This document shows, piece after piece, positions 15,223 to 55,265 of a stretch of 64,000 nucleotides of DNA. Position numbers and translations under genes: made by a program. This DNA comes from an uncultured Pseudomonadota bacterium. GTDB taxonomy: Bacteria; Pseudomonadota; Alphaproteobacteria; RF32; CAG-239. Numbering within the stretch: position 1 is the stretch's first letter; each line of letters opens with the position of its first letter. Location of the stretch: contig CACWKS010000008.1 in NCBI GenBank assembly GCA_902761535.1, forward strand, positions 9,022-73,021, written 5' to 3'. Below the pieces are notes generated by a model that searched no databases, had not been told where the DNA came from, and saw nothing but the letters and a program-made list of their open reading frames with translations.

Positions 15223-15579
15223 TTAAAATATATTACATAAAGGTCCCCAAAAATCTTCATTACAAGCTTCGCAATTATTTCCAGTATATTTCCATGCCGC
15301 TACTTTATCATCTTCAATAGTAAATGTTGTTTCACATTTCCAATTATAAACATTTCCATCTATGGAATAAACAGACGTCCTCAAATAACTAAGATATTCC
15401 ACGTGATTATCTAGTTTATAAGTACTTGTTGGAACACCCCATGTTTCTATTAAATTTCGTTTATCAGAATCCATCCAAGTATTTAATATTCTATCGTAAC
15501 CTGCAGATGTTGCACAGTTTGAGATAAAAAGCAAAGATGAAATCAGAAATATATTTTTCGAGCTTATAAATGATGACAT
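15223..15579 (-). CDS. Hypothetical lipoprotein
   Basis: Signal peptide ending in lipobox LFISNC. Sits in an AT-rich pocket. No family recognised. Confidence 0.5.
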   Translation of the reverse strand: MSSFISSKNIFLISSLLFISNCATSAGYDRILNTWMDSDKRNLIETWGVPTSTYKLDNHVEYLSYLRTSVYSIDGNVYNWKCETTFTIEDDKVAAWKYTGNNCEACNEDFWGPLCNIF

Positions 15580-15640: not shown

Positions 15641-16153
15641 CTATTTTCCATACTTATAAAATATATCATCTATTTCATTTTTAATTTTTTGTGGATTATC
15701 TATTCCCTCAAATTTAATAACTTTATTGCCTGTTCCTGTAAAAACGATTGTTCCATATCCTAAAATTAATCCAAATAAACTTTTTTTAATGTTTGTAGAT
15801 TCAACTTTTTCTAAACGCAATTCATCAGTATTATGAATAAAAATCCCTTTTTTCAAAATAACACGCTTATTAGTAACAACCATCTCTACAGCTTTTGAAC
15901 TAAAATAGCAAAAAAAAGCAAAACCTCCAAACATCATAATTCCGATTTCACCTACTACCATAGCATCTTTTGTTCCCACAAATAATGTTGGTATAAAAGC
16001 CATTGCAAAAAGTAACATAAAGACAACGCAAGGCCAATATAACCACCCATTTACTTTTTCTGCGACCAAAATTTTTTCTTCTTTACCAAGATTTTTTGAA
16101 ACATAGTCAGGAAAATAAGTGTTTTTATTGTTTTCTTTTTTTTGTTTTGCCAT
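15641..16153 (-). CDS. Membrane protein with bacterial PH (bPH_2/YdbS-like) domain
   Basis: Two TM helices followed by VTNKRVILKKGIF....E.....V......S.....LGYGTIVF.GTG pattern. Paralogue at 34412-34963. Confidence 0.6.
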   Translation of the reverse strand: MAKQKKENNKNTYFPDYVSKNLGKEEKILVAEKVNGWLYWPCVVFMLLFAMAFIPTLFVGTKDAMVVGEIGIMMFGGFAFFCYFSSKAVEMVVTNKRVILKKGIFIHNTDELRLEKVESTNIKKSLFGLILGYGTIVFTGTGNKVIKFEGIDNPQKIKNEIDDIFYKYGK

Positions 16154-16375: not shown

Positions 16376-17860
16376 ATGGAGTTTGATGTGTTATCTCTTC
16401 TGATTTTTTTTATCGGCTATATGATTTTTGCCACAGCTAATTGGATTATTCACAAATTCGGTCCGGTTACTTATGAGCAAATAATGTTCCACCTCAATAT
16501 GCCTTTCGATTCGGAAACACGGCTTATGTTAAGCTATTTCAAACATACCGTTATGACTGCAGCCATCATTATTTTGCTTTTGTTGTTGCTGTTTTGCCGC
16601 AAATACAAATTTCATGTTAAACTCATCGATCAGGTCAGGGATTTTATTTATGCCAAAAAACTTTGGTTCAGCTTAGCTTGGTTAGCTTTTTGTTGCCTGT
16701 GGTTTTTCGTTCGTATGAATGTTTGGACTATGCTGAATTATCATAATATCAAACGTGAAACTTCCAATTTTTACGAGCAAAATTATGTTATACCCCAGCA
16801 TACCAAAATCACTTTTCCCAAACATAAACGCAATTTGGTGCTGATATTTATGGAGAGTATGGAGGCGACTTATGCCAAAATTCCGCACCATAATTATTTT
16901 GATGCCGATTTAATTCCCGAATTACATCATCTGGCCAAGCAAAATATCAATTTCAGCGATAATGAATATATCGGCGGTTCTTCGTCTATCGATGGAACTC
17001 AATGGACTCAGGGCGGATTGGTTGCTCAAACTTGCGGAATCCCTATCCAATTACCGATTAATGACGCTAATTTCTTCCATCCTAAAAACAGCTTTTATCC
17101 AAATGCCTGGTGTTTATACGATATTTTGCGGCAAAAAGGTTATGAAGAAAGTTTTCTGCTCGGCTCTAATGGTGAGTTTGCCGGCATGAACCGTTTTCTT
17201 GAGACTCACGGCAAACAAAAAATGTTGGATATTTTATATTATGCCAAACGTGACGGCCTCAAAGTTTCTTTTGAAAAAACTACCAAGTTGCCCGATAAAC
17301 AACTCTTTGTTTACGCCAAAGAGGAGCTGTCGCAATTAGCCTCACAAAATAAACCTTTTGTCTTCACCTTGATGACTTTGGATACTCATTACGGCACCGG
17401 AAGATTTGCCGATGATATTTGCGATCGCAAATATGGTGAACACAATAATATCAAAAATGTGGTTTCCTGCTCCAGTTATCAAATCGGTGAATTTGTCAAT
17501 TGGCTTAAACAACAACCGTATTATCGTGATACTGTTATTGTAATGTTGGGTGATCACCTGACTATGAACGAATTTTTTACTGACGATATGAATCGCAAAG
17601 TCTTAAACATATTTATCAATTCCTCAGTCGGTGCCGATCGCACCAAAAATCGCAACTTTACGCCTTTTGATATCTATCCGACCATTGTTGAAAGTTTAGG
17701 TGCCAAAATTTCCGGCCATCGTTTGGGTTTAGGAACATCTCTGTTTTCCGATATCCCGACCTTAACCGAAAGCAAAATGAGTATCGAAGAAATGGACACG
17801 GAAGTCCGTAAATCATCTAAATTGTACGATTGGTTGCTCTACGGTAAAAATGTCAAATAG
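16376..17860 (+). CDS. Membrane-anchored sulfatase/LTA-synthase-family transferase (phosphoglycerol-transferase-like)
   Basis: N-terminal TM bundle followed by alkaline-phosphatase-superfamily blocks (FMESMEATY, TLDTHYG, MLGDHL). Confidence 0.7.
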   Translation: MEFDVLSLLIFFIGYMIFATANWIIHKFGPVTYEQIMFHLNMPFDSETRLMLSYFKHTVMTAAIIILLLLLLFCRKYKFHVKLIDQVRDFIYAKKLWFSLAWLAFCCLWFFVRMNVWTMLNYHNIKRETSNFYEQNYVIPQHTKITFPKHKRNLVLIFMESMEATYAKIPHHNYFDADLIPELHHLAKQNINFSDNEYIGGSSSIDGTQWTQGGLVAQTCGIPIQLPINDANFFHPKNSFYPNAWCLYDILRQKGYEESFLLGSNGEFAGMNRFLETHGKQKMLDILYYAKRDGLKVSFEKTTKLPDKQLFVYAKEELSQLASQNKPFVFTLMTLDTHYGTGRFADDICDRKYGEHNNIKNVVSCSSYQIGEFVNWLKQQPYYRDTVIVMLGDHLTMNEFFTDDMNRKVLNIFINSSVGADRTKNRNFTPFDIYPTIVESLGAKISGHRLGLGTSLFSDIPTLTESKMSIEEMDTEVRKSSKLYDWLLYGKNVK

Positions 17861-17861
17861 C

Positions 17862-18284
17862 CTACCACGGCTCGGCATACAGCAAAAACTTATCTCTGCC
17901 GTTGATAGTTTTTATCTCATGATTGAGCAAAATTGTCGGCAATTCATATTGGCAAAAAGTACTTAAAGGATGGGCATTTTTAATAAAAGCCGTAATATTT
18001 CCGCTCGCCCCCAGCACCATTCGCGTTGAAGCAATTCCCCACACCTGATAAGCTTCATCTCGCGATAATCCGCTGTTAGGCGAAAACAAATCAAGCTCCA
18101 ACAAAGCCTTTCCGCAAGGAGTATCTTCAATAGTCATGGCGTTTTTATGATTTTTTACATAATCCAAAGCCAAGTGTTTGTTAGTATCATCATTTTGAAA
18201 ACTTACACTGAACAAAACCAATGAATCAGGTTTGGTCGTCACATCATAAGTTCTGGCGATTTCCAGAATTTTTTGATCTACCAT
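17862..18284 (-). CDS. Mini ADP-ribosyl cyclase / CD38-like (putative NAD+ glycohydrolase/cyclase) protein
   Basis: Ordered blocks LVLFSVS, MTIEDTPCG, QVWGIAS and STFCQYELPTIL match the remembered FWSG, TLEDTL(L/P)G, FW(K/G)xxS and S(T/F)FGxxE(L/V)xNL blocks of CD38 and Aplysia cyclase. ATG at 18284 is preferred over the track's TTG at 18302. Confidence 0.45.
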   Translation of the reverse strand: MVDQKILEIARTYDVTTKPDSLVLFSVSFQNDDTNKHLALDYVKNHKNAMTIEDTPCGKALLELDLFSPNSGLSRDEAYQVWGIASTRMVLGASGNITAFIKNAHPLSTFCQYELPTILLNHEIKTINGRDKFLLYAEPW

Positions 18285-18430
18285 GGCACACCGTGAATAC
18301 AACGTTCCGGTGTTTTTTCACAGTCCGCACGACCTTGTTCGTATTGTGCATGTCTTTCCGGCGAAAACTCACCTGCTTTAACACATGCCGTTAAAATAAA
18401 CACAAGTATAAAAGCCAAAATTTTTTTCAA
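18278..18430 (-). CDS. Unannotated 50-aa lipoprotein (TTG start)
   Basis: Hand-translated: (M)KKILAFILVFILTAC VKAGEFSPERHAQYEQGRADCEKTPERCIHGVPW. GAGGA lies 7 nt upstream of the TTG. Clear lipobox. Its stop overlaps the next gene's start (ATGGTAG). Below the track's 60-aa cut-off. Confidence 0.45.
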   Translation of the reverse strand: MKKILAFILVFILTACVKAGEFSPERHAQYEQGRADCEKTPERCIHGVPW

Positions 18431-18434
18431 GTCT

Positions 18435-18806
18435 TTATCCTCTGATAATAACCCACCAAATACTCACAACAGCCGCAATAATAATTATACGTGCCGATTG
18501 TGCCAACCAAACGCTTTTATCATAAGTTGCAGCCGATTTCCAAATTCCTTTGACAATTCCTACGGAATATATAACTAAAAACAACGATACGGCAAAATAA
18601 CACAACAACCAAGCAGCATTGATATGAGTAAAATTACTTATGTTAAAATTTCTGAAAAAATTAATCCAATTAGAACCCTTCGCATAATATCCGGATAAAG
18701 ATCTGAACATTTTGTGAGCATAATACAAAATAGTCAGTCCCAAAATCCCATATTTCCAAAAAGTAACCCTAAGCGGCAATTCTCCGTTGAAAAGTTTCTT
18801 TAACAT
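18435..18806 (-). CDS. Hypothetical 3-TM membrane protein
   Basis: Three hydrophobic helices. Ends 4 nt before the small lipoprotein ORF. No family recognised. Confidence 0.55.
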   Translation of the reverse strand: MLKKLFNGELPLRVTFWKYGILGLTILYYAHKMFRSLSGYYAKGSNWINFFRNFNISNFTHINAAWLLCYFAVSLFLVIYSVGIVKGIWKSAATYDKSVWLAQSARIIIIAAVVSIWWVIIRG

Positions 18807-18888
18807 TATTTTTGTCCTTTTATCTGACCGACAACCTTAGCAATTATGATGTTAATTGCCCATTTAAGCAAGCTAATAATCAAAAATC

Positions 18889-20268
18889 TTAACAGTTAGC
18901 TATATTAACCGCCAAACCGCCTAGAGAAGTCTCTTTATAACGATTACTCATATCTTTGCCGGTCGCATACATGGTTTTTATGGCACTGTCAAGTGATACA
19001 AAATGTTCGCCTTTGCCTTGCAACGCTAATCTGGCGGAATTTACGGCTTTGACTGCTCCCATCGCATTTCGTTCAATACAAGGAATTTGCACCAATCCGC
19101 ATACCGGATCGCAAGTCAATCCCAGATTGTGTTCTATGGCAATCTCGGCTGCTTGTTCAATCTGATTATTGTTTCCCCCCATAGCCGCTGCTAAGCCGGC
19201 CGCTGCCATCGAACAAGCCACTCCGACTTCTCCCTGACAACCGACCTCGGCTCCGGATATTGAAGCATTAGTCCGATAAAGCGAACAAATGGCTGCTGCT
19301 GTGGTAAAAAATTTCACAATTCCGTCATCGACCGATAAAGGCGACATATGAGAAGCGAATTTTTGAAAATAACGTAATACTGCCGGAATAATTCCTGATG
19401 ATCCCATTGTCGGAGCCGTAACCACCCGACTTCCGGAAGCATTTTCCTCAGCCACGGCAAATCCCCATAAGTTCAACCAATCAATTACTTCCAAACCATC
19501 CTGTTGATTAGTCAAAAATTTTTCTCTCATTCTGCGATAAATTTCCGCAGCTCTTCTTTTTACGTGAAGTCCGCCGGGGAGTTCTCCTGAGCCATGCATT
19601 CCTTTATCTATTGCCGCATCCATAATCCCGTGAATTTTTTTCAAATAATCAAAAACTTGTTTTTCCGGCGCCAGACATACTTCATTTTGCAAAACCACAT
19701 CAGATATGGAAAGATTATATTTATTGCAAATATTCTGCAGTTCTTTACAACTGTCAAATTGATGAGGCACATTATATATTTGGTGAACAATTTCTTGTCC
19801 CATTTCGTCTTTGCGTAGAACTGTACCGCCGCCGATGGAAAAATATTCCTCCGATAAAATTTTATTTTTTCCGGAAAAAGCCGTAAAACGCATGCCGTTA
19901 GAATGTTCCGGTAAAAATATTTTCTTATGTAGTTTCATATCATTGTCAACATCAAACGGAATAGGCTTCATTTGCGCCAAATGCAACATTTTATCCCGTT
20001 CAAGATAGAAATAATAGGGCTGGCTGGTGTCTATATCCTCAGCATTAAATCCCATTAATCCGTAAGTAATTGCCTTTAGAGTTCCGTGTCCTACACCGGT
20101 TAGAGCAAGCGAACCGTATAAATCAACTTTCAGCGAAGTGACTTTATCAATCTCACCGTATTTTTTAATATTATCAACAAATCGCTTGGCTGCAACCATC
20201 GGTCCGACCGTATGCGAGCTTGACGGACCGATACCTATGGCAAAAATTTCTGATAAACGATAATACAT
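18889..20268 (-). CDS. sdaA: L-serine dehydratase (single-chain, Fe-S type)
   Basis: IGPSSSHTVGPM N-terminus and C-terminal CDPVCGLVQIPCIERNA block. Confidence 0.9.
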   Translation of the reverse strand: MYYRLSEIFAIGIGPSSSHTVGPMVAAKRFVDNIKKYGEIDKVTSLKVDLYGSLALTGVGHGTLKAITYGLMGFNAEDIDTSQPYYFYLERDKMLHLAQMKPIPFDVDNDMKLHKKIFLPEHSNGMRFTAFSGKNKILSEEYFSIGGGTVLRKDEMGQEIVHQIYNVPHQFDSCKELQNICNKYNLSISDVVLQNEVCLAPEKQVFDYLKKIHGIMDAAIDKGMHGSGELPGGLHVKRRAAEIYRRMREKFLTNQQDGLEVIDWLNLWGFAVAEENASGSRVVTAPTMGSSGIIPAVLRYFQKFASHMSPLSVDDGIVKFFTTAAAICSLYRTNASISGAEVGCQGEVGVACSMAAAGLAAAMGGNNNQIEQAAEIAIEHNLGLTCDPVCGLVQIPCIERNAMGAVKAVNSARLALQGKGEHFVSLDSAIKTMYATGKDMSNRYKETSLGGLAVNIANC

Positions 20269-21983
20269 TATAAATATGTCCTGATATCTTTATATGGTTT
20301 AACCCCGATTTTTATCAAAGTATCGGCTATATATTCATGCAATTTACCCCATTCGGTGTTTTCTTCAATAAATTGCTGAGCTTTTTTAGGTGATTTTGAT
20401 AATTGCACGGCAATCGTTTCTTCCAAAATTTTATTCATAACTTTGGGCATTATGGCAAAATCAATACTTATTTTGTTATCAGCGTTGAAAGTAATTGCGC
20501 CATGTCGGAGCAAATAATTGAAATGAATCAAATCTCCCATACGGTGAGGTTGTATTTGTTGGGGTTTTGCTTTCAGCAACAGCCTCATTATCCATGTAAC
20601 ATAAACTTTATGTAAAGTTGTTTCATCAATAACTCCGGATTTAACATATTGCGGCATCATAGCTATTGAAACAACATCAGCCTTGTTTTCTTCAATAATA
20701 TGCTTGTAAGCACCTAAAGAATCTTTATAAGAACTGTCCGGCCCTAAAGAATGTCCGTTTTCATGTCCTATCACAAAAATATGTTCGACCTCATCATCAT
20801 AGTATTGATGAAAGTCTTTTTCTAATAAAGCATTTAGCATCTCCGTTCTCAGAGCTTTATCACCCGACATTCTGACTTGACGGTGATACACATTACGCCG
20901 TCCTCCACCGGTTCTGACCGATAATTTGTCATCATTGGGCAAATTCTGTGCGGTGGTAATTCCGCCTCGACATTGTGCATAATCTCCCTGCAGAGTTGCC
21001 AAATCTACGTCAACCATAGTTTGTTTGACATCATCACCTGTATCAATTTTTTGCTCATATTGGTCTGCCAAGGGCATTAGTTTGGCTAACTTTGACATTT
21101 GTGATTTAAACTTCAAAATTAAATCCGTACCTTTTTTATTTACTATACCGACACGAGCACCCAGCATATCTTTTGCAATCGGAAAAATATTATTTTCCTC
21201 CAATAGTGCGACTAATTCTTCATTTTCAAAAACACTCGGGGTTACCTCATCATCATAATTTTCTCTGGATAATGTGAATTCTAAAGGTGTATCCTGCATA
21301 ATCGCCCAGTGTTTGTCGGCTAACATATCCATATCTTCATTGTTTTGCAACAAAGCTTGAGCTTGCCATCCCAAATAATCATTAAATTCTTCATTAGTCG
21401 AGTAATGAGCCGCAACCTCCAATTCATTAGCTATGTCGGAAAAAGCTTGGGCAAAAAATTGTGTATAATCGATAGCAATCAAATCCTCACCCTTTCGGCG
21501 CACCATAGAGCGAGCAGACAATATTTTTCGTACCTCATCAATATTTCCGTTTTTTAACATCCGATATAAAATTTTATGAAATTCTTCAATCGATAAATCG
21601 GTAGGATAAAAATTACGTCCTTTATAAATATGCACATTTTCAAATATTTCTATCGGGTCTTTATCTATGCCGTTGATTCCGGCAACTCCGTTAAAAGAAT
21701 TAAAAAGTTTTAAGGCTTTAGCCGCATGAGTATTGTTTTTTGCTGCATCTTCTAATCCTTTTTTCAATAGAAGATTAAGCGGGTGATCCTGTTCAAGTGC
21801 TACATTGTTTAGAATACGCGCAGCTGCTATCAAATGAGACAAAGCTTTTTTATCCCCTTCTGCCAATTGTTGATAACCTTCAAAATTCCTGTCAATCATT
21901 TCAATAGGCATCATTTGCTGATTGATTATCTTATCTAAATCTGCTTCGCTGATTGCTATTTCAAAATTATTAATCTTCGTCAT
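20268..21983 (-). CDS. Zinc metallopeptidase, DPP III (M49)-like
   Basis: HENGH (HExxH) followed ~30 aa later by EENKAD, resembling the M49 second motif EExxAE/D. TAATG overlap with sdaA. Confidence 0.5.
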   Translation of the reverse strand: MTKINNFEIAISEADLDKIINQQMMPIEMIDRNFEGYQQLAEGDKKALSHLIAAARILNNVALEQDHPLNLLLKKGLEDAAKNNTHAAKALKLFNSFNGVAGINGIDKDPIEIFENVHIYKGRNFYPTDLSIEEFHKILYRMLKNGNIDEVRKILSARSMVRRKGEDLIAIDYTQFFAQAFSDIANELEVAAHYSTNEEFNDYLGWQAQALLQNNEDMDMLADKHWAIMQDTPLEFTLSRENYDDEVTPSVFENEELVALLEENNIFPIAKDMLGARVGIVNKKGTDLILKFKSQMSKLAKLMPLADQYEQKIDTGDDVKQTMVDVDLATLQGDYAQCRGGITTAQNLPNDDKLSVRTGGGRRNVYHRQVRMSGDKALRTEMLNALLEKDFHQYYDDEVEHIFVIGHENGHSLGPDSSYKDSLGAYKHIIEENKADVVSIAMMPQYVKSGVIDETTLHKVYVTWIMRLLLKAKPQQIQPHRMGDLIHFNYLLRHGAITFNADNKISIDFAIMPKVMNKILEETIAVQLSKSPKKAQQFIEENTEWGKLHEYIADTLIKIGVKPYKDIRTYL

Positions 21984-23481
21984 CTTTTACCTCGACTGAT
22001 CTAAAACGAAAAATTCTTATATCTTTTGCCCAATAAGCAGGACTTAATCCGGCTTGTAATTTTAATTTTTTTATAAATTCATTTTTATCTTTTACATCCA
22101 ACCAAGTATCTGGTAACAAAAAACCTTCACGTTTACCGCTGCGCAATAATAGGCCATCAACTCCATATTCTATCTGTTCCAACAAATCATCATACGATGA
22201 AAATTTTATTTTTTCTGGTTCAGTTAATAATTGTAATGATAAACTCAACGAATTTTTATCGGTAATTTTCAACCCTTCCGGTGTATTCATAATGTGAAAA
22301 ATATTGCGGGCGATATCGGCAGCAACAGCTCTTACTGCTGCGATTTCTCCAAAGCATCCCACCAATTTTCCGTTTTGATAAATTTTTACAAAAGATGCTC
22401 CGCGGTTAAATAAAAAATTATTAAAGTTTTTTCGTCTGACTTTATAACGTTTTTTAGGGGCTGAAGCTAAACTGTTTTGAGCAACTTTTAACAGCTCTTT
22501 ATAATGATGTCTGACAAAGTTTTTTAGATTATGATAATATAATTCACTACCGTTTAAAACAGTTTGTTCTAACGGCTCATCATAACTCCAACCTTTTACT
22601 TCTATCAATGCATTTGTATTGGCTGATACTTGTGAAGCATTTAATAATCTCGGAACCAAACCATATTTTTTGGCTAATATAACCGAAGTTTCCAAACCTG
22701 TCTTGCTGCAAAAAGCATGTCTGTTTTGTTTTAACCTGATTTCTAAATTTTGATCATCATCTGCAGTTGGTAAAAAATATCCGGCTAAATCAGCGACCAC
22801 AATTACCAACACATTTTTTTTATTAAGATAGGGGCTAATAAGTTTAGCTAACTCTTCCGGATTAACTTTACTATATAAAATAGGTGCAATTTTGGCGGAT
22901 TTAAATGTTTTTTGAATAAAGGGCAGTTGAACATTCAGCGAATTCTTTTTCGAATAATAACTTTGATTTCCTTTAGCTAAAGGACTTTTTTGCCAATCAT
23001 TTACTATATTTTGATTAATTGCTATATCCCCAAGCGGAGTAGTTATAATATTGTTGCTAGGTAAAGCTATACCGTCAAATTTTTGATGAGATGGACCGAT
23101 TAAAATAATATTGCGATAAATATCGCTAAAAGGCTTAAGTTGATTAAAACTTTCCTGAGCCAAAGCACCGGCACGGCGATAACCGTGATGTGGTTGAATT
23201 ATAATACGGGGAAAGTTTTTTAATTTAGGTTGAGAATATTCAATATAGCCGTCCGCGTTGTTGTTATTTTGATATGCATCGGCGGGATAGAAAAAAGCAG
23301 CCATCGCCAAATCTGCCGGAGGAATAATATCTTCATCACTCAAATTATATTCGGATATGCTTTGATGATTACTGGAAATTTGATATTTAAAATAAGCAAC
23401 ATTAAACCATATAATTACAAAAATTATGGTTGCAATCATTATATAACCCGATATTTTTTTTCGGTTGAACTCCATAAGCAT
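21970..23481 (-). CDS. Membrane-anchored fusion of a Memo-like (AmmeMemoRadiSam B) domain and an AMMECR1-like (A) domain
   Basis: N-terminal TM helix. Memo blocks FFYP, IIQPHHGYRRAG, LIGPSH, TPLGDI. C-terminal AMMECR1 blocks GKLVGCFGEI and GLLLRSGKREGFLLPDTW. Confidence 0.6.
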   Translation of the reverse strand: MLMEFNRKKISGYIMIATIIFVIIWFNVAYFKYQISSNHQSISEYNLSDEDIIPPADLAMAAFFYPADAYQNNNNADGYIEYSQPKLKNFPRIIIQPHHGYRRAGALAQESFNQLKPFSDIYRNIILIGPSHQKFDGIALPSNNIITTPLGDIAINQNIVNDWQKSPLAKGNQSYYSKKNSLNVQLPFIQKTFKSAKIAPILYSKVNPEELAKLISPYLNKKNVLVIVVADLAGYFLPTADDDQNLEIRLKQNRHAFCSKTGLETSVILAKKYGLVPRLLNASQVSANTNALIEVKGWSYDEPLEQTVLNGSELYYHNLKNFVRHHYKELLKVAQNSLASAPKKRYKVRRKNFNNFLFNRGASFVKIYQNGKLVGCFGEIAAVRAVAADIARNIFHIMNTPEGLKITDKNSLSLSLQLLTEPEKIKFSSYDDLLEQIEYGVDGLLLRSGKREGFLLPDTWLDVKDKNEFIKKLKLQAGLSPAYWAKDIRIFRFRSVEVKDDED

Positions 23482-54170: not shown

Positions 54171-55265
54171 ATGTCATCATTACAAACTTTTCGAGTTTTA
54201 GGTATTTCCAGTGGTTCGGCACTTGACGGAGTTGATGCTTCGGTTATTGTTACCGATGGTGTTGATGTATTTGATATTTGCCGCAATTATGAGTTTCCTT
54301 TTGATGAGGAGTTACGTAATAATCTTATAAAATTACATAAAAATTATCCGAATATCGATGAAAATGAAAAAATCAATGTGGAGGCAAAATATACCGATTT
54401 TTGCATTGACGCGGTTAAAGAAATATTGGAGGATGATAAAGATATAAATTTGATCGGATTTGGCGGACATATCATTTGTCACAAACCTCAGGAACATATT
54501 TTGTGTCAAATCGGTGATAACGAAAAAATAGCTCATCAATGCAATATTACAACTGTCGGCAGATTGCGTGATGCCGATATGCTATCCGGCGGTATGGGAG
54601 CACCTCTGGCAGCCATTTATCATGCCGCTTTGTCGCAAAAATTGCCTAAACCTCTGGTGTGGATTGATATCGGAGGCATAAGTGCTTTAACTTATATCGG
54701 TATTAATGGCGAGTTATTGGCTTTTGATACCGGTCCCGGTAATGCATTTATCAATGATTGGGTGGCCAAACATGCGGGAATCTATATGGATCATAACGGC
54801 AGTCTTGCCGCTTCCGGTCATATTAACAACGATGTATTATCGTCTTTAATGCGGCATAAATTTTTAAATATTCAGCCGCCCAAAGCAGTCGATAAAAGTG
54901 TTTTTGATGATAAAAGAGAACATCTTGAAGGGTTGAGCGTTGAAGATGGCGCAGCTACCGCTACGGCATTTGTTGCCGATTCCATAATCAAAGCAATCAA
55001 AGATTTCGTTCCGGAAAAACCCAACGAAGTAATTATTTGTGGCGGAGGGGCTAAAAATCCGACTTTGATGCGTTTTTTACGTCAGCGATCTGAGGATCTG
55101 GAAATATGCAATTCCGAACAACACGATTTTGCTTCACAAGCTATCGAAGCTCAAGCATTTGGTTATTTGGCGGTTCGCCGTTGTAACCAAATGCCGACTT
55201 CTTATCCGTTCACCACCGGTGCTGCAATGGAAGTTATTGGTGGCGAAGTATATGCTAATTCTTAG
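54171..55265 (+). CDS. anmK: Anhydro-N-acetylmuramic acid kinase
   Basis: GISSGSALDGVDA N-terminus, DTGPGN and CGGGAKNP blocks. Confidence 0.9.
   Translation: MSSLQTFRVLGISSGSALDGVDASVIVTDGVDVFDICRNYEFPFDEELRNNLIKLHKNYPNIDENEKINVEAKYTDFCIDAVKEILEDDKDINLIGFGGHIICHKPQEHILCQIGDNEKIAHQCNITTVGRLRDADMLSGGMGAPLAAIYHAALSQKLPKPLVWIDIGGISALTYIGINGELLAFDTGPGNAFINDWVAKHAGIYMDHNGSLAASGHINNDVLSSLMRHKFLNIQPPKAVDKSVFDDKREHLEGLSVEDGAATATAFVADSIIKAIKDFVPEKPNEVIICGGGAKNPTLMRFLRQRSEDLEICNSEQHDFASQAIEAQAFGYLAVRRCNQMPTSYPFTTGAAMEVIGGEVYANS

Follow-up and report, generated by a model that had tools for sequence, protein, structure and literature searches.

Organization of the locus

The stretch of DNA analyzed here, called the window below, is a segment of 64,000 nt from an uncultured member of the Alphaproteobacteria (RF32; CAG-239; assembly GCA_902761535.1, contig CACWKS010000008.1, positions 9,022-73,021). 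Three consecutive genes of its minus strand are considered, named ORF1, ORF2 and ORF3 (ORF, open reading frame), which encode a small membrane protein, a very short lipoprotein precursor and a protein assigned to the ADP-ribosyl cyclase (ARC) fold of CD38. A preliminary description of this DNA had taken the three genes for one functional module. The analysis presented below, which covers the structure of the genes, their synteny, the conservation of sequences and residues, the protein fold and selection, makes a different situation fairly probable: ORF3 would be an ARC of the Nac type (described below), which stands alone, stays in the cytoplasm and does not act as a toxin, its gene being appended to a separate envelope module that is found throughout the lineage. 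The gene structure was read from the minus strand between positions 17600 and 19100 together with the table of ORFs, and the features of the locus are as follows.

18435..18806, minus strand: ORF1, 123-aa predicted inner-membrane protein with three long helices, from a family without Pfam or NCBIfam match
18278..18430, minus strand: ORF2, 50-aa lipoprotein precursor with a TTG start and the lipobox LTAC
17862..18284, minus strand: ORF3, 140-aa leaderless, stand-alone protein of predicted ADP-ribosyl cyclase (CD38/Tox-ARC) fold
18438..18442, minus strand: Shine-Dalgarno sequence GAGGA of ORF2, within the final ORF1 codons, 7 nt before the TTG
18843..18871, minus strand: predicted sigma-70-like promoter footprint (-35 TTGCTT, 18871..18866; 17-nt spacer; -10 CATAAT, 18848..18843)
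16376..17860, plus strand: convergent boundary gene, outside the unit, for a 494-aa membrane enzyme of the sulfatase family (OpgB/LtaS-like)

The junctions between these genes are very tight. The 3' end of ORF1 reads AGA GGA TAA, its stop codon lies 4 nt before the TTG of ORF2 (18430), and a perfect GAGGA is separated from this TTG by a spacer of 7 nt (TAAAGAC), as had been reported in the preliminary description. The segment CCATGGTAG at the end of ORF2 holds the ATG of ORF3 (18284), and the two genes overlap by 7 nt, ATGGTAG. At the other end, the 1-nt gap described between the stop codon of ORF3 (17862) and that of the convergent gene (17860) was found as well. No Rfam family reached its gathering threshold anywhere in the 64-kb window, and no known RNA family therefore explains these junctions. 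The convergent 494-aa protein belongs to the sulfatase family, its NCBIfam similarity being best to OpgB/MdoB and weaker to LtaS. The same convergent adjacency is present in three related loci (L001, L027 and L019; related loci carry L numbers throughout), and an argS or peptidase gene takes the place of the sulfatase gene in L002-L010. A functional link between the ARC and the sulfatase was considered and set aside: the two genes are convergent and their adjacency is absent from L002-L010, though it recurs in L019.

Assignment of ORF3 to the ADP-ribosyl cyclase fold

The relationship between ORF3 and the ARC proteins is visible only by profile and fold searches, because the direct scans of ORF3 against Pfam, NCBIfam and PADLOC returned no match. 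An AlphaFold2 model of ORF3 (predicted local distance difference test, pLDDT, 90.9; predicted template modelling score 0.85) was compared with the PDB using Foldseek. The top 50 matches are all ARC structures, with E values from 1e-5 to 5e-3, and include Pantoea ARCtox (9RO8, E 1e-5), porcine CD38, Tac1 (9OUF) and the Aplysia cyclase. Two sequence profiles were used in addition. The first one, built from an alignment of 15 close relatives (A1), gives weak matches in the PDB to porcine CD38, the Aplysia cyclase, 9RO8 (a 149-aa 'ADP-ribosylcyclase toxin') and 9OUF. With the second one, to which more distant stand-alone relatives were added (A3), all of the 39 PDB matches at E<=1 are ARCs, led by porcine CD38 (4.9e-6), ARCtox (7.2e-5) and Tac1 (5e-4). 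Judged from these profiles and from the model, ORF3 is a bacterial member of the ARC/CD38 fold, and the domain covers residues 1-140 of this 140-aa protein. The term 'CD38-like' of the preliminary description is thus confirmed by fold and profile searches. As for 'mini-cyclase', a minimal protein of the CD38/ARC fold is indeed encoded, but the word cyclase is less certain because of the Glu found at the position equivalent to CD38 E146. A fold search of BFVD gave a single unnamed match at E 2e-4, the rest being weak and nucleoside-deoxyribosyltransferase-like.

The 15 clusters of close relatives (48-99% identity) come from uncultured alphaproteobacterial or proteobacterial metagenome-assembled genomes of rumen or gut metagenomes. 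An exhaustive search of 1.84 billion representatives with the A1 profile extended the family to 858 relatives, many of which are C-terminal domains of long CdiA-like (haemagglutinin repeats), DUF4280 (PAAR-like) or ankyrin proteins. Two of the relatives retrieved with this profile pass the gathering threshold of PF02267. Remote members with ankyrin, DUF4280 and filamentous-haemagglutinin fusions include P0044 (462 aa), P0101 (510 aa) and P0156 (1084 aa), and the ankyrin-ARC fusion suggests a eukaryote-directed effector.

Active-site residues and predicted product

The residues of ORF3 that align with CD38's active-site positions are listed below.

CD38 W125, ORF3 F25: Phe in 17 and Tyr in 8 of the 25 aligned family members
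CD38 E146, ORF3 E53: in the close clade of 15, Glu in 7, Ala in 5, Asp in 2 and Ser in 1
CD38 W189, ORF3 W82: kept in 24 of 25 members
CD38 E226 (Tac1 E573, ARCtox E356), ORF3 E114: kept in 23 of 25 members

In the toxins, the pair W273/W323 of ARCtox corresponds to W125/W189 of CD38, and E516 of Tac1 to E146. Four residues, W82, R88, F110 and E114, are conserved in at least 90% of the family. The motif around E114, S-T-F-C-Q-Y-E-L-P, aligns with Y-E-L-P in the Aplysia enzyme and V-E-V in CD38; E53 stands within T-I-E-D-T, the CD38 counterpart of which is T-L-E-D-T. Position 53 (about 18126-18128 in the window) changes its residue even among loci of identical gene order, the protein of L007 having Ala.

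Colautti et al. (2025, PMC12356396) reported that the residue equivalent to E146 controls the product: Glu promotes hydrolysis to ADP-ribose (ADPR), and Ala, as in Nac1 or in the Tac1 E516A mutant, releases cyclic ADP-ribose (cADPR). By the usual ARC mechanism, ORF3 would attack through E114 the nicotinamide-ribosyl bond of nicotinamide adenine dinucleotide or its phosphate (NAD(P)+), with W82 and F25 stacking on the substrate. Going by these residues, cleavage of the nicotinamide-ribose bond of NAD(P)+ is the most likely reaction. E53 would favor hydrolysis of the cyclic intermediate, with ADPR as the main product, and its presence argues against cADPR as the main product of the copy in the window; an Ala at this position in sister lineages would favor the release of cADPR.

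A conserved pair of membrane protein and mini-lipoprotein

Loci related to the window were gathered by protein searches, contig look-ups, a genome scan and a metagenome scan. In every locus examined that has an ORF1 homologue, an ORF of 49-52 codons lies directly downstream of it, 2-12 nt past its stop codon, and this ORF is in frame in 12 of 12 independent loci. Each of the 12 orthologues has a lipobox (LSGC in most, also LCGC, LSAC, LFGC and VGGC, for LTAC in the window), preceded by a basic n-region and a hydrophobic core, together with the motifs G-E/D-F (GEF..R), C-x6-C and a terminal G-x-(P/A)-W-stop. The start codon occupies the same aligned position (ATG in 6 loci, TTG in 5, GTG in 1) and is preceded in 12 of 12 loci by a Shine-Dalgarno sequence, AGGA/GGGG, placed 7-9 nt upstream. 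The conservation of these two elements validates the TTG start in the window. The ratio of nonsynonymous to synonymous substitution rates (dN/dS) of ORF2 is about 0.17 in pairwise comparisons with the window where dS is unsaturated. With this constraint, the in-frame conservation and the conserved Shine-Dalgarno sequence, the small TTG ORF first noticed in the preliminary description can be considered a genuine conserved lipoprotein gene, and the arrangement of the locus goes well beyond what chance would produce. Gene finders miss it in some public contigs (L007, L009).

The ORF2 product reads MKKILAFILVFILTAC-VKAGEFSPERHAQYEQGRADCEKTPERCIHGVPW. Its signal, MKK-ILAFILVFI-LTAC, combines the basic n-region, the hydrophobic h-region and the lipobox (L-T-A-C) of a lipoprotein precursor, and MKKILAFILVFILTAC is followed by VKAGEF...GVPW. 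The mature part has 35 residues, with C37 and C44 spaced as C-x6-C and a C-terminal PW. The three additional Cys residues previously counted in the mature part have to be corrected to two, Cys37 and Cys44, Cys16 being that of the lipobox. The NCBIfam matches of ORF2 (LA_0364, LvhB7 etc.) were discarded as sub-threshold and driven by the signal peptide.

ORF1 belongs to a family of at least 147 clusters at 90% identity, from uncultured gut and rumen Alphaproteobacteria, with lengths of 117-151 aa (nearly all 122-131) and 'hypothetical protein [Alphaproteobacteria bacterium]' as the best available name. Residues G8, L12, F16, W17 and S98 are invariant, and dN/dS is 0.09-0.18. The description of a protein with three transmembrane segments is supported by the three long helices (12-37, 64-94 and 99-122) of its AlphaFold2 model (pLDDT 80), the first of which is only weakly hydrophobic. 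ORF1 has no Pfam or NCBIfam match above threshold, weak Pfam matches to PKD_channel and MatC_N being rejected as below it, and a Foldseek comparison of the model with the PDB gave no meaningful structural neighbor (best E 4.2). ORF1 and ORF2 appear to represent an undescribed family, and public annotations gain a 50-aa lipoprotein gene, often uncalled, which is obligately paired with an uncharacterized family of three-helix membrane proteins. Diversifying selection had been considered for both genes, which are divergent between the window and L001; their dN/dS of 0.17-0.18 indicates just a weaker constraint.

The pair always ends the gene string AMMECR1/Memo - 571-aa HExxH protein - (sdaA). 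In the window, the part of this string at 20268-23481 (minus strand) encodes Memo and AMMECR1 fused into one protein of 503 aa (AmmeMemoRadiSam proteins B+A) as well as the 571-aa protein, which has a HENGH (HExxH) motif and belongs to no family of Pfam or NCBIfam; the string persists in loci where the identity of the 571-aa protein has dropped to about 56%. This may be the true functional context of ORF1 and ORF2. Upstream of ORF1, a footprint similar to TTGCTT-N17-CATAAT (cTTGCt, (c/g)ATAAT) is conserved in 10 sdaA-ORF1 intergenic regions (window, L001, L002, L007-L011, L013 and L020) around a spacer of variable sequence. From this conservation, the footprint at 18871..18843 is read as the predicted promoter of the ORF1-ORF2(-ARC) unit. 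A consensus promoter and terminator scan performed no better than on shuffled sequences and did not flag the footprint, its -35 threshold being unmet. In L023, a locus devoid of the ARC, a gene for a type IV secretion system (T4SS) coupling protein (TraG/VirD4-like; L023:5578-7369) lies about 1.5 kb downstream of ORF1-ORF2, and the otherwise identical L020-22 have a TGT gene at that place, which points to a mobile-element insertion beside the conserved string.

Synteny of the ARC gene and of the ORF1-ORF2 pair

The association of the three genes was investigated by TBLASTN of the three proteins and of their neighbors against all fetched loci. The complete set ORF1, ORF2 and ARC is found in the window and in L001/L027, L002, L003/L010, L007, L008 and L009. 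These are the closest relatives, with at least 74% identity for the ARC and at least 80% for the upstream 571-aa protein. In five more distant lineages (L011/12, L013/14, L015, L020-23 and L024-26), ORF1 and ORF2 are present and the ARC is not; the identity of ORF1 goes down to 31% in these loci, and in L011/12 argS begins 42 nt past ORF2. In number of clusters, the ORF1 family exceeds the close ARC clade about tenfold (at least 147 against 15). Conversely, the ARC gene occurs without the pair in the following contexts.

Behind AnmK: L004-6, L028
By itself, against the same convergent sulfatase gene: L019
Behind a ClpB-like gene, whose stop codon the ARC start overlaps: L016-18, L029, L030, L037, L039, L046, L048
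Behind a DUF4167 gene, in some loci together with a membrane metallophosphoesterase (YaeI/LpxG-like) or a HAD hydrolase: L036, L038, L040-45, L047
Beside other housekeeping genes (UDP-glucose dehydrogenase, Mfd, RF3 or a Fic protein): L031, L033, L047, L035

About 7 of some 28 distinct ARC loci carry ORF1 and ORF2, all of them being closest relatives, and none of the neighboring genes accompanies the ARC through all of the at least five different contexts. The ARC gene is always the last one in its direction of transcription. A comparison of the TyrRS-AnmK block documents its relocation directly: the block of the window (AnmK, 54171-55265) is syntenic with L004:3884-5429, where an ARC gene (68% identical) follows AnmK by 28 nt, and this site is devoid of an ARC in the window. 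A survey of neighbors had been proposed beforehand, the module being refuted if the homologues never co-occurred. They do co-occur, in this one sub-clade only, and the idea of a single three-gene module is not supported by loci in which either part is present without the other. The distribution agrees with a single gene that is sufficient by itself and has moved again and again to the 3' end of one housekeeping operon or another.

Two of these contexts deserve a mention of their own. The 3' end of the ClpB-like gene, so named from a reading of its translation (e.g. L016:20-1806), is the commonest context of the ARC homologues with 45-52% identity, a further case in which the ARC rides on the end of a housekeeping gene, here a chaperone-like one. 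In more distant lineages, the gene directly before the ARC encodes a metallophosphoesterase of YaeI/LpxG-like type that is anchored in the membrane (Pfam Metallophos), or else a HAD hydrolase (L036:1838-2974, L042, L045, L047; L038:1565-2245), itself preceded by a DUF4167 protein. A phosphoesterase adjoining the ARC could process ADPR or cADPR.

Overlap of ORF2 and ORF3

The overlap noted in the window is retained in the form (C/G)CATGGTA(A/G) in 8 of 8 ARC-bearing sdaA loci. The ATG of ORF3 takes its letters from the final Pro/Ala and Trp codons of ORF2, and the overlapping ORF2 stop codon forces the N-terminus 'MV', with which all eight of these ARCs begin; those in other contexts begin with MH, MQ or MD. 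This retention makes co-transcription and translational coupling plausible in the sub-clade of the window. The coupling had been deduced in the preliminary description from the overlap, the part of that claim which is now confirmed in all eight loci; coupling itself is plausible on sequence grounds. Given the other contexts of the gene, it looks like an arrangement of expression rather than a sign of shared function.

Comparison with characterized ARC proteins

Bacterial ARC domains were predicted in 2012 under the name Tox-ARC, with Imm74 as their primary immunity protein (Zhang et al. 2012, PMC3482391), and ARC toxins were characterized in 2025, namely Tac1 of a type VII secretion system (T7SS) and ARCtox of a type VI secretion system (T6SS) (PMC12356396, PMC12605009). 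In the survey of Martinkus et al., ARC domains occurred 'exclusively' as fusions to secretion modules. Before 2025, bacterial enzymes of the CD38 fold had been characterized experimentally only as secreted NAD-depleting toxins. One report then hinted at non-toxin ARCs and at a possible role of cADPR in bacterial physiology: Colautti, Kim and Whitney described stand-alone 'Nac' ARCs without immunity genes, which make cADPR (PMC12356396).

ORF3 shares with Nac1 a stand-alone minimal ARC, a location outside any polymorphic-toxin locus, the absence of an adjacent immunity gene and the catalytic Glu, and some members of its clade have the same Ala at the CD38-E146 position. Judged by its sequence and its surroundings, ORF3 fits the Nac category. 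It differs from Nac1, compared here by description only, in having Glu instead of Ala at the E146-equivalent position and Phe in place of the first active-site Trp. Moreover, Nac1 from Actinophytocola oryzae has a Sec signal peptide, whereas ORF3 and 30 relatives have none and are predicted to be cytoplasmic.

The best structural matches of ORF3 (E 1e-5 to 1e-4) are Tac1 (Streptococcus parasanguinis, LXG/T7SS, 9OUF) and ARCtox (Pantoea ananatis, PAAR/T6SS, 9RO8), with which it has in common a core fold of about 130-150 residues and the W...E-L-P catalytic region. These two toxins are C-terminal domains of secreted proteins encoded with immunity genes (Imm74 or ARCimm), whereas ORF3 is free-standing among housekeeping genes, has an identity of 17-18% to them and carries Phe where ARCtox has W273. 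With CD38, CD157 and the Aplysia cyclase (PF02267) it shares the fold, the TLEDT-like T-I-E-D-T, W-x3-S-x-R and S-T-F-x3-E, but it is about 110 residues shorter and is devoid of the disulfide-rich helical insertions, of an ectodomain and of a membrane anchor. The Tox-ARC proteins (PMC3482391) belong to the same superfamily, and remote ORF3 relatives are likewise fused to haemagglutinin repeats or PAAR-like domains. They are however defined by delivery through type V, T6SS or T7SS secretion together with Imm74/Imm63, neither of which is found at the ORF3 locus, and their list of hosts does not contain Alphaproteobacteria.

Interpretation of the locus

In the reading favored here, the locus would consist of two units of different age. 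The first one, ORF1 and ORF2, would be an old two-gene envelope module with its own conserved promoter, present throughout a lineage of rumen and gut Alphaproteobacteria. As a best guess, it would pair an inner-membrane protein of three helices with a small lipopeptide stapled by a disulfide, the mature ORF2 lipopeptide having about 35 residues and a probable C37-C44 disulfide. The second unit would be the 140-aa ARC gene, appended to the 3' end of this module in one sub-clade; the position of its ATG in the last ORF2 codons leads us to infer that it is co-transcribed with the module. ORF3 would be translated by re-initiation or by coupling to ORF2, probably at a low or modest level. To judge from its sequence, devoid of a signal peptide and of a trafficking domain, the protein would stay in the cytoplasm and act as a self-sufficient housekeeping or regulatory enzyme, presumably without toxicity.

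The preliminary description compared the locus with two kinds of systems, a signal generator with membrane effectors and a toxin with delivery or immunity proteins. In the defense version, the ARC would make cADPR or a related nucleotide on infection, and this would activate the three-helix protein and the lipoprotein to permeabilize or arrest the cell, as in Thoeris, CBASS or Pycsar. A nucleotide-metabolizing enzyme and small membrane proteins do stand in one overlapping unit, NAD-derived cyclic nucleotides are known as bacterial immune signals (PMC12356396), and the Glu/Ala polymorphism at the product-determining position points to an evolving product spectrum. In the systems cited, however, generator and effector are co-inherited, typically in variable or defense islands, whereas here the ARC and the pair each occur alone: ORF1 and ORF2 are conserved without the ARC in five lineages, within a housekeeping gene string, and most ARC loci are without the pair. 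PADLOC gave no match for any of the three proteins at E<=1, and a sensor domain was not found in them. The gene downstream of the ARC is always convergent and of the housekeeping type, and synteny of the flanks persists over a protein divergence of at least 40%, unlike in a variable or defense island. Finally, the ARC is under strong purifying selection, with a dN/dS of 0.022 between the window and the approximately 88%-identical L001 strain, a value as low as those of sdaA (0.037) and the sulfatase gene (0.064), against 0.17-0.18 in ORF1/ORF2. The defense explanation, tempting as it is, appears very unlikely, and the reading of this locus as a new defense system is unsupported.

The same constraint bears on the toxin version, in which the ARC would be a NAD(P)+-depleting toxin of the Tac1/ARCtox type, exported by an unlinked route (e.g. 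as T6SS or T4SS cargo), with ORF1 and/or ORF2 acting in immunity or delivery. The nearest characterized relatives are antibacterial toxins (PMC12356396, PMC12605009), CdiA, PAAR-like or ankyrin modules are joined to remote members of the family, and the catalytic Glu is accompanied by the second Glu typical of full hydrolases. No N-terminal trafficking domain (LXG, PAAR, VgrG, Rhs or CdiA type) was detected in ORF3, though, and no secretion-system gene is adjacent, the neighbors being sdaA, ORF1, ORF2 and the sulfatase-family gene. None of 31 stand-alone ARC homologues has a signal-peptide-like N-terminus (maximal 10-residue hydropathy <=2.0, against 3.65 for ORF2), and the Pfam and NCBIfam scans of the locus proteins revealed no match to Imm74, Imm63 or any other immunity family. 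The predicted membrane protein and periplasmic/envelope lipopeptide exist in genomic loci devoid of the ARC and are hence not cognate immunity proteins; elsewhere, the ARC has no small partner upstream or downstream. ARC relatives were absent by TBLASTN from 50,697 phage and 72,556 plasmid records, and from a pattern scan of IMG/VR. Toxins engaged in an arms race do not typically show a dN/dS as low as 0.02, and features of polymorphic-toxin loci are missing. Taken together, these results are what marks a conserved enzyme of the cell and not an arms-race weapon. A toxin with immunity or delivery partners is accordingly held to be improbable.

Several observations weigh against the favored reading of ORF3 as a stand-alone cytoplasmic ARC, and most of them concern its activity. 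The first active-site Trp (CD38 W125, ARCtox W273) is Phe or Tyr throughout the ORF3 clade, and the Ala mutant of ARCtox W273 is inactive; with this replacement, the activity may be low or the substrate different. ORF3 itself has no PF02267 match even at E<=1, a model built mainly on longer eukaryotic proteins, and its template modelling scores to the solved ARCs are only 0.47-0.60. Colautti et al. (PMC12356396) report that NADase activity in the cytoplasm, even when weak, is toxic to E. coli, and the tolerance of a constitutively active cytosolic ARC without inhibitor is for this reason puzzling. A low intrinsic activity (perhaps through the W-to-F replacement), regulation or a different preferred substrate are possible explanations, and an unlinked inhibitor or regulation of the ARC could also exist. 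At the level of synteny, the conserved 7-nt overlap wires the ARC tightly to the expression of ORF2, which is compatible with some functional link in the sub-clade; the loci devoid of the ARC are seen on contigs only, and the corresponding genomes may carry it elsewhere.

The replaced Trp, found in 25 of 25 aligned members, and the missing direct PF02267 match also speak for an ARC-fold protein that does not act on NAD. It would have another N-glycosidic substrate (a nucleotide, a nucleoside or NAD-capped RNA), as in the nucleoside 2-deoxyribosyltransferase and LOG-like folds, or be a binder of low activity, its adjacency to the pair being pure synteny. The nucleoside deoxyribosyltransferases among the weak BFVD matches agree with this, and the tolerance of a cytosolic copy without inhibitor would be explained. 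On the other hand, three of the four tetrad residues as well as S/T-F-x3-E-L-P and W-x3-S-x-R have exact counterparts in the alignments with CD38 and the Aplysia cyclase, and every significant PDB sequence match, like all top structure matches, is an ARC. This alternative is regarded as unlikely, though less so than the defense and toxin schemes. There is, lastly, a slim chance that the ARC supplies the cytoplasm of these bacteria with cADPR or another NAD-derived nucleotide as an endogenous second messenger. E53/A53 would then tune the balance between signal (cADPR) and sink (ADPR), and in the sub-clade of the window the synthesis would be slaved, through translational coupling, to an ORF1/ORF2 module that responds to the nucleotide or reports the state of the envelope. 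If true, this would be the first CD38-type intracellular nucleotide signaling in bacteria.

Under the favored reading, ORF3 represents a clade of leaderless, partner-less and strongly conserved mini-ARCs, annotated only as 'hypothetical protein' in abundant uncultured Alphaproteobacteria of the rumen and gut; one related ARC cluster alone is present on at least 1000 contigs. The natural Glu/Ala variants at the product-determining position provide a test of the function of cytoplasmic bacterial ARCs.

Other features of the window

By Rfam, the window (1-64000) contains no tRNA, rRNA, riboswitch or known small RNA, which is unusual for such a length of bacterial chromosome. Beyond the sulfatase gene lie two further small genes of the envelope type, both on the minus strand. 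The first one (15223-15579) encodes a protein of 118 aa without family match, the N-terminus of which resembles that of a lipoprotein (…LLFISNC…), and the second one (15641-16153) a membrane protein of 170 aa that contains a bacterial PH domain (bPH_2).

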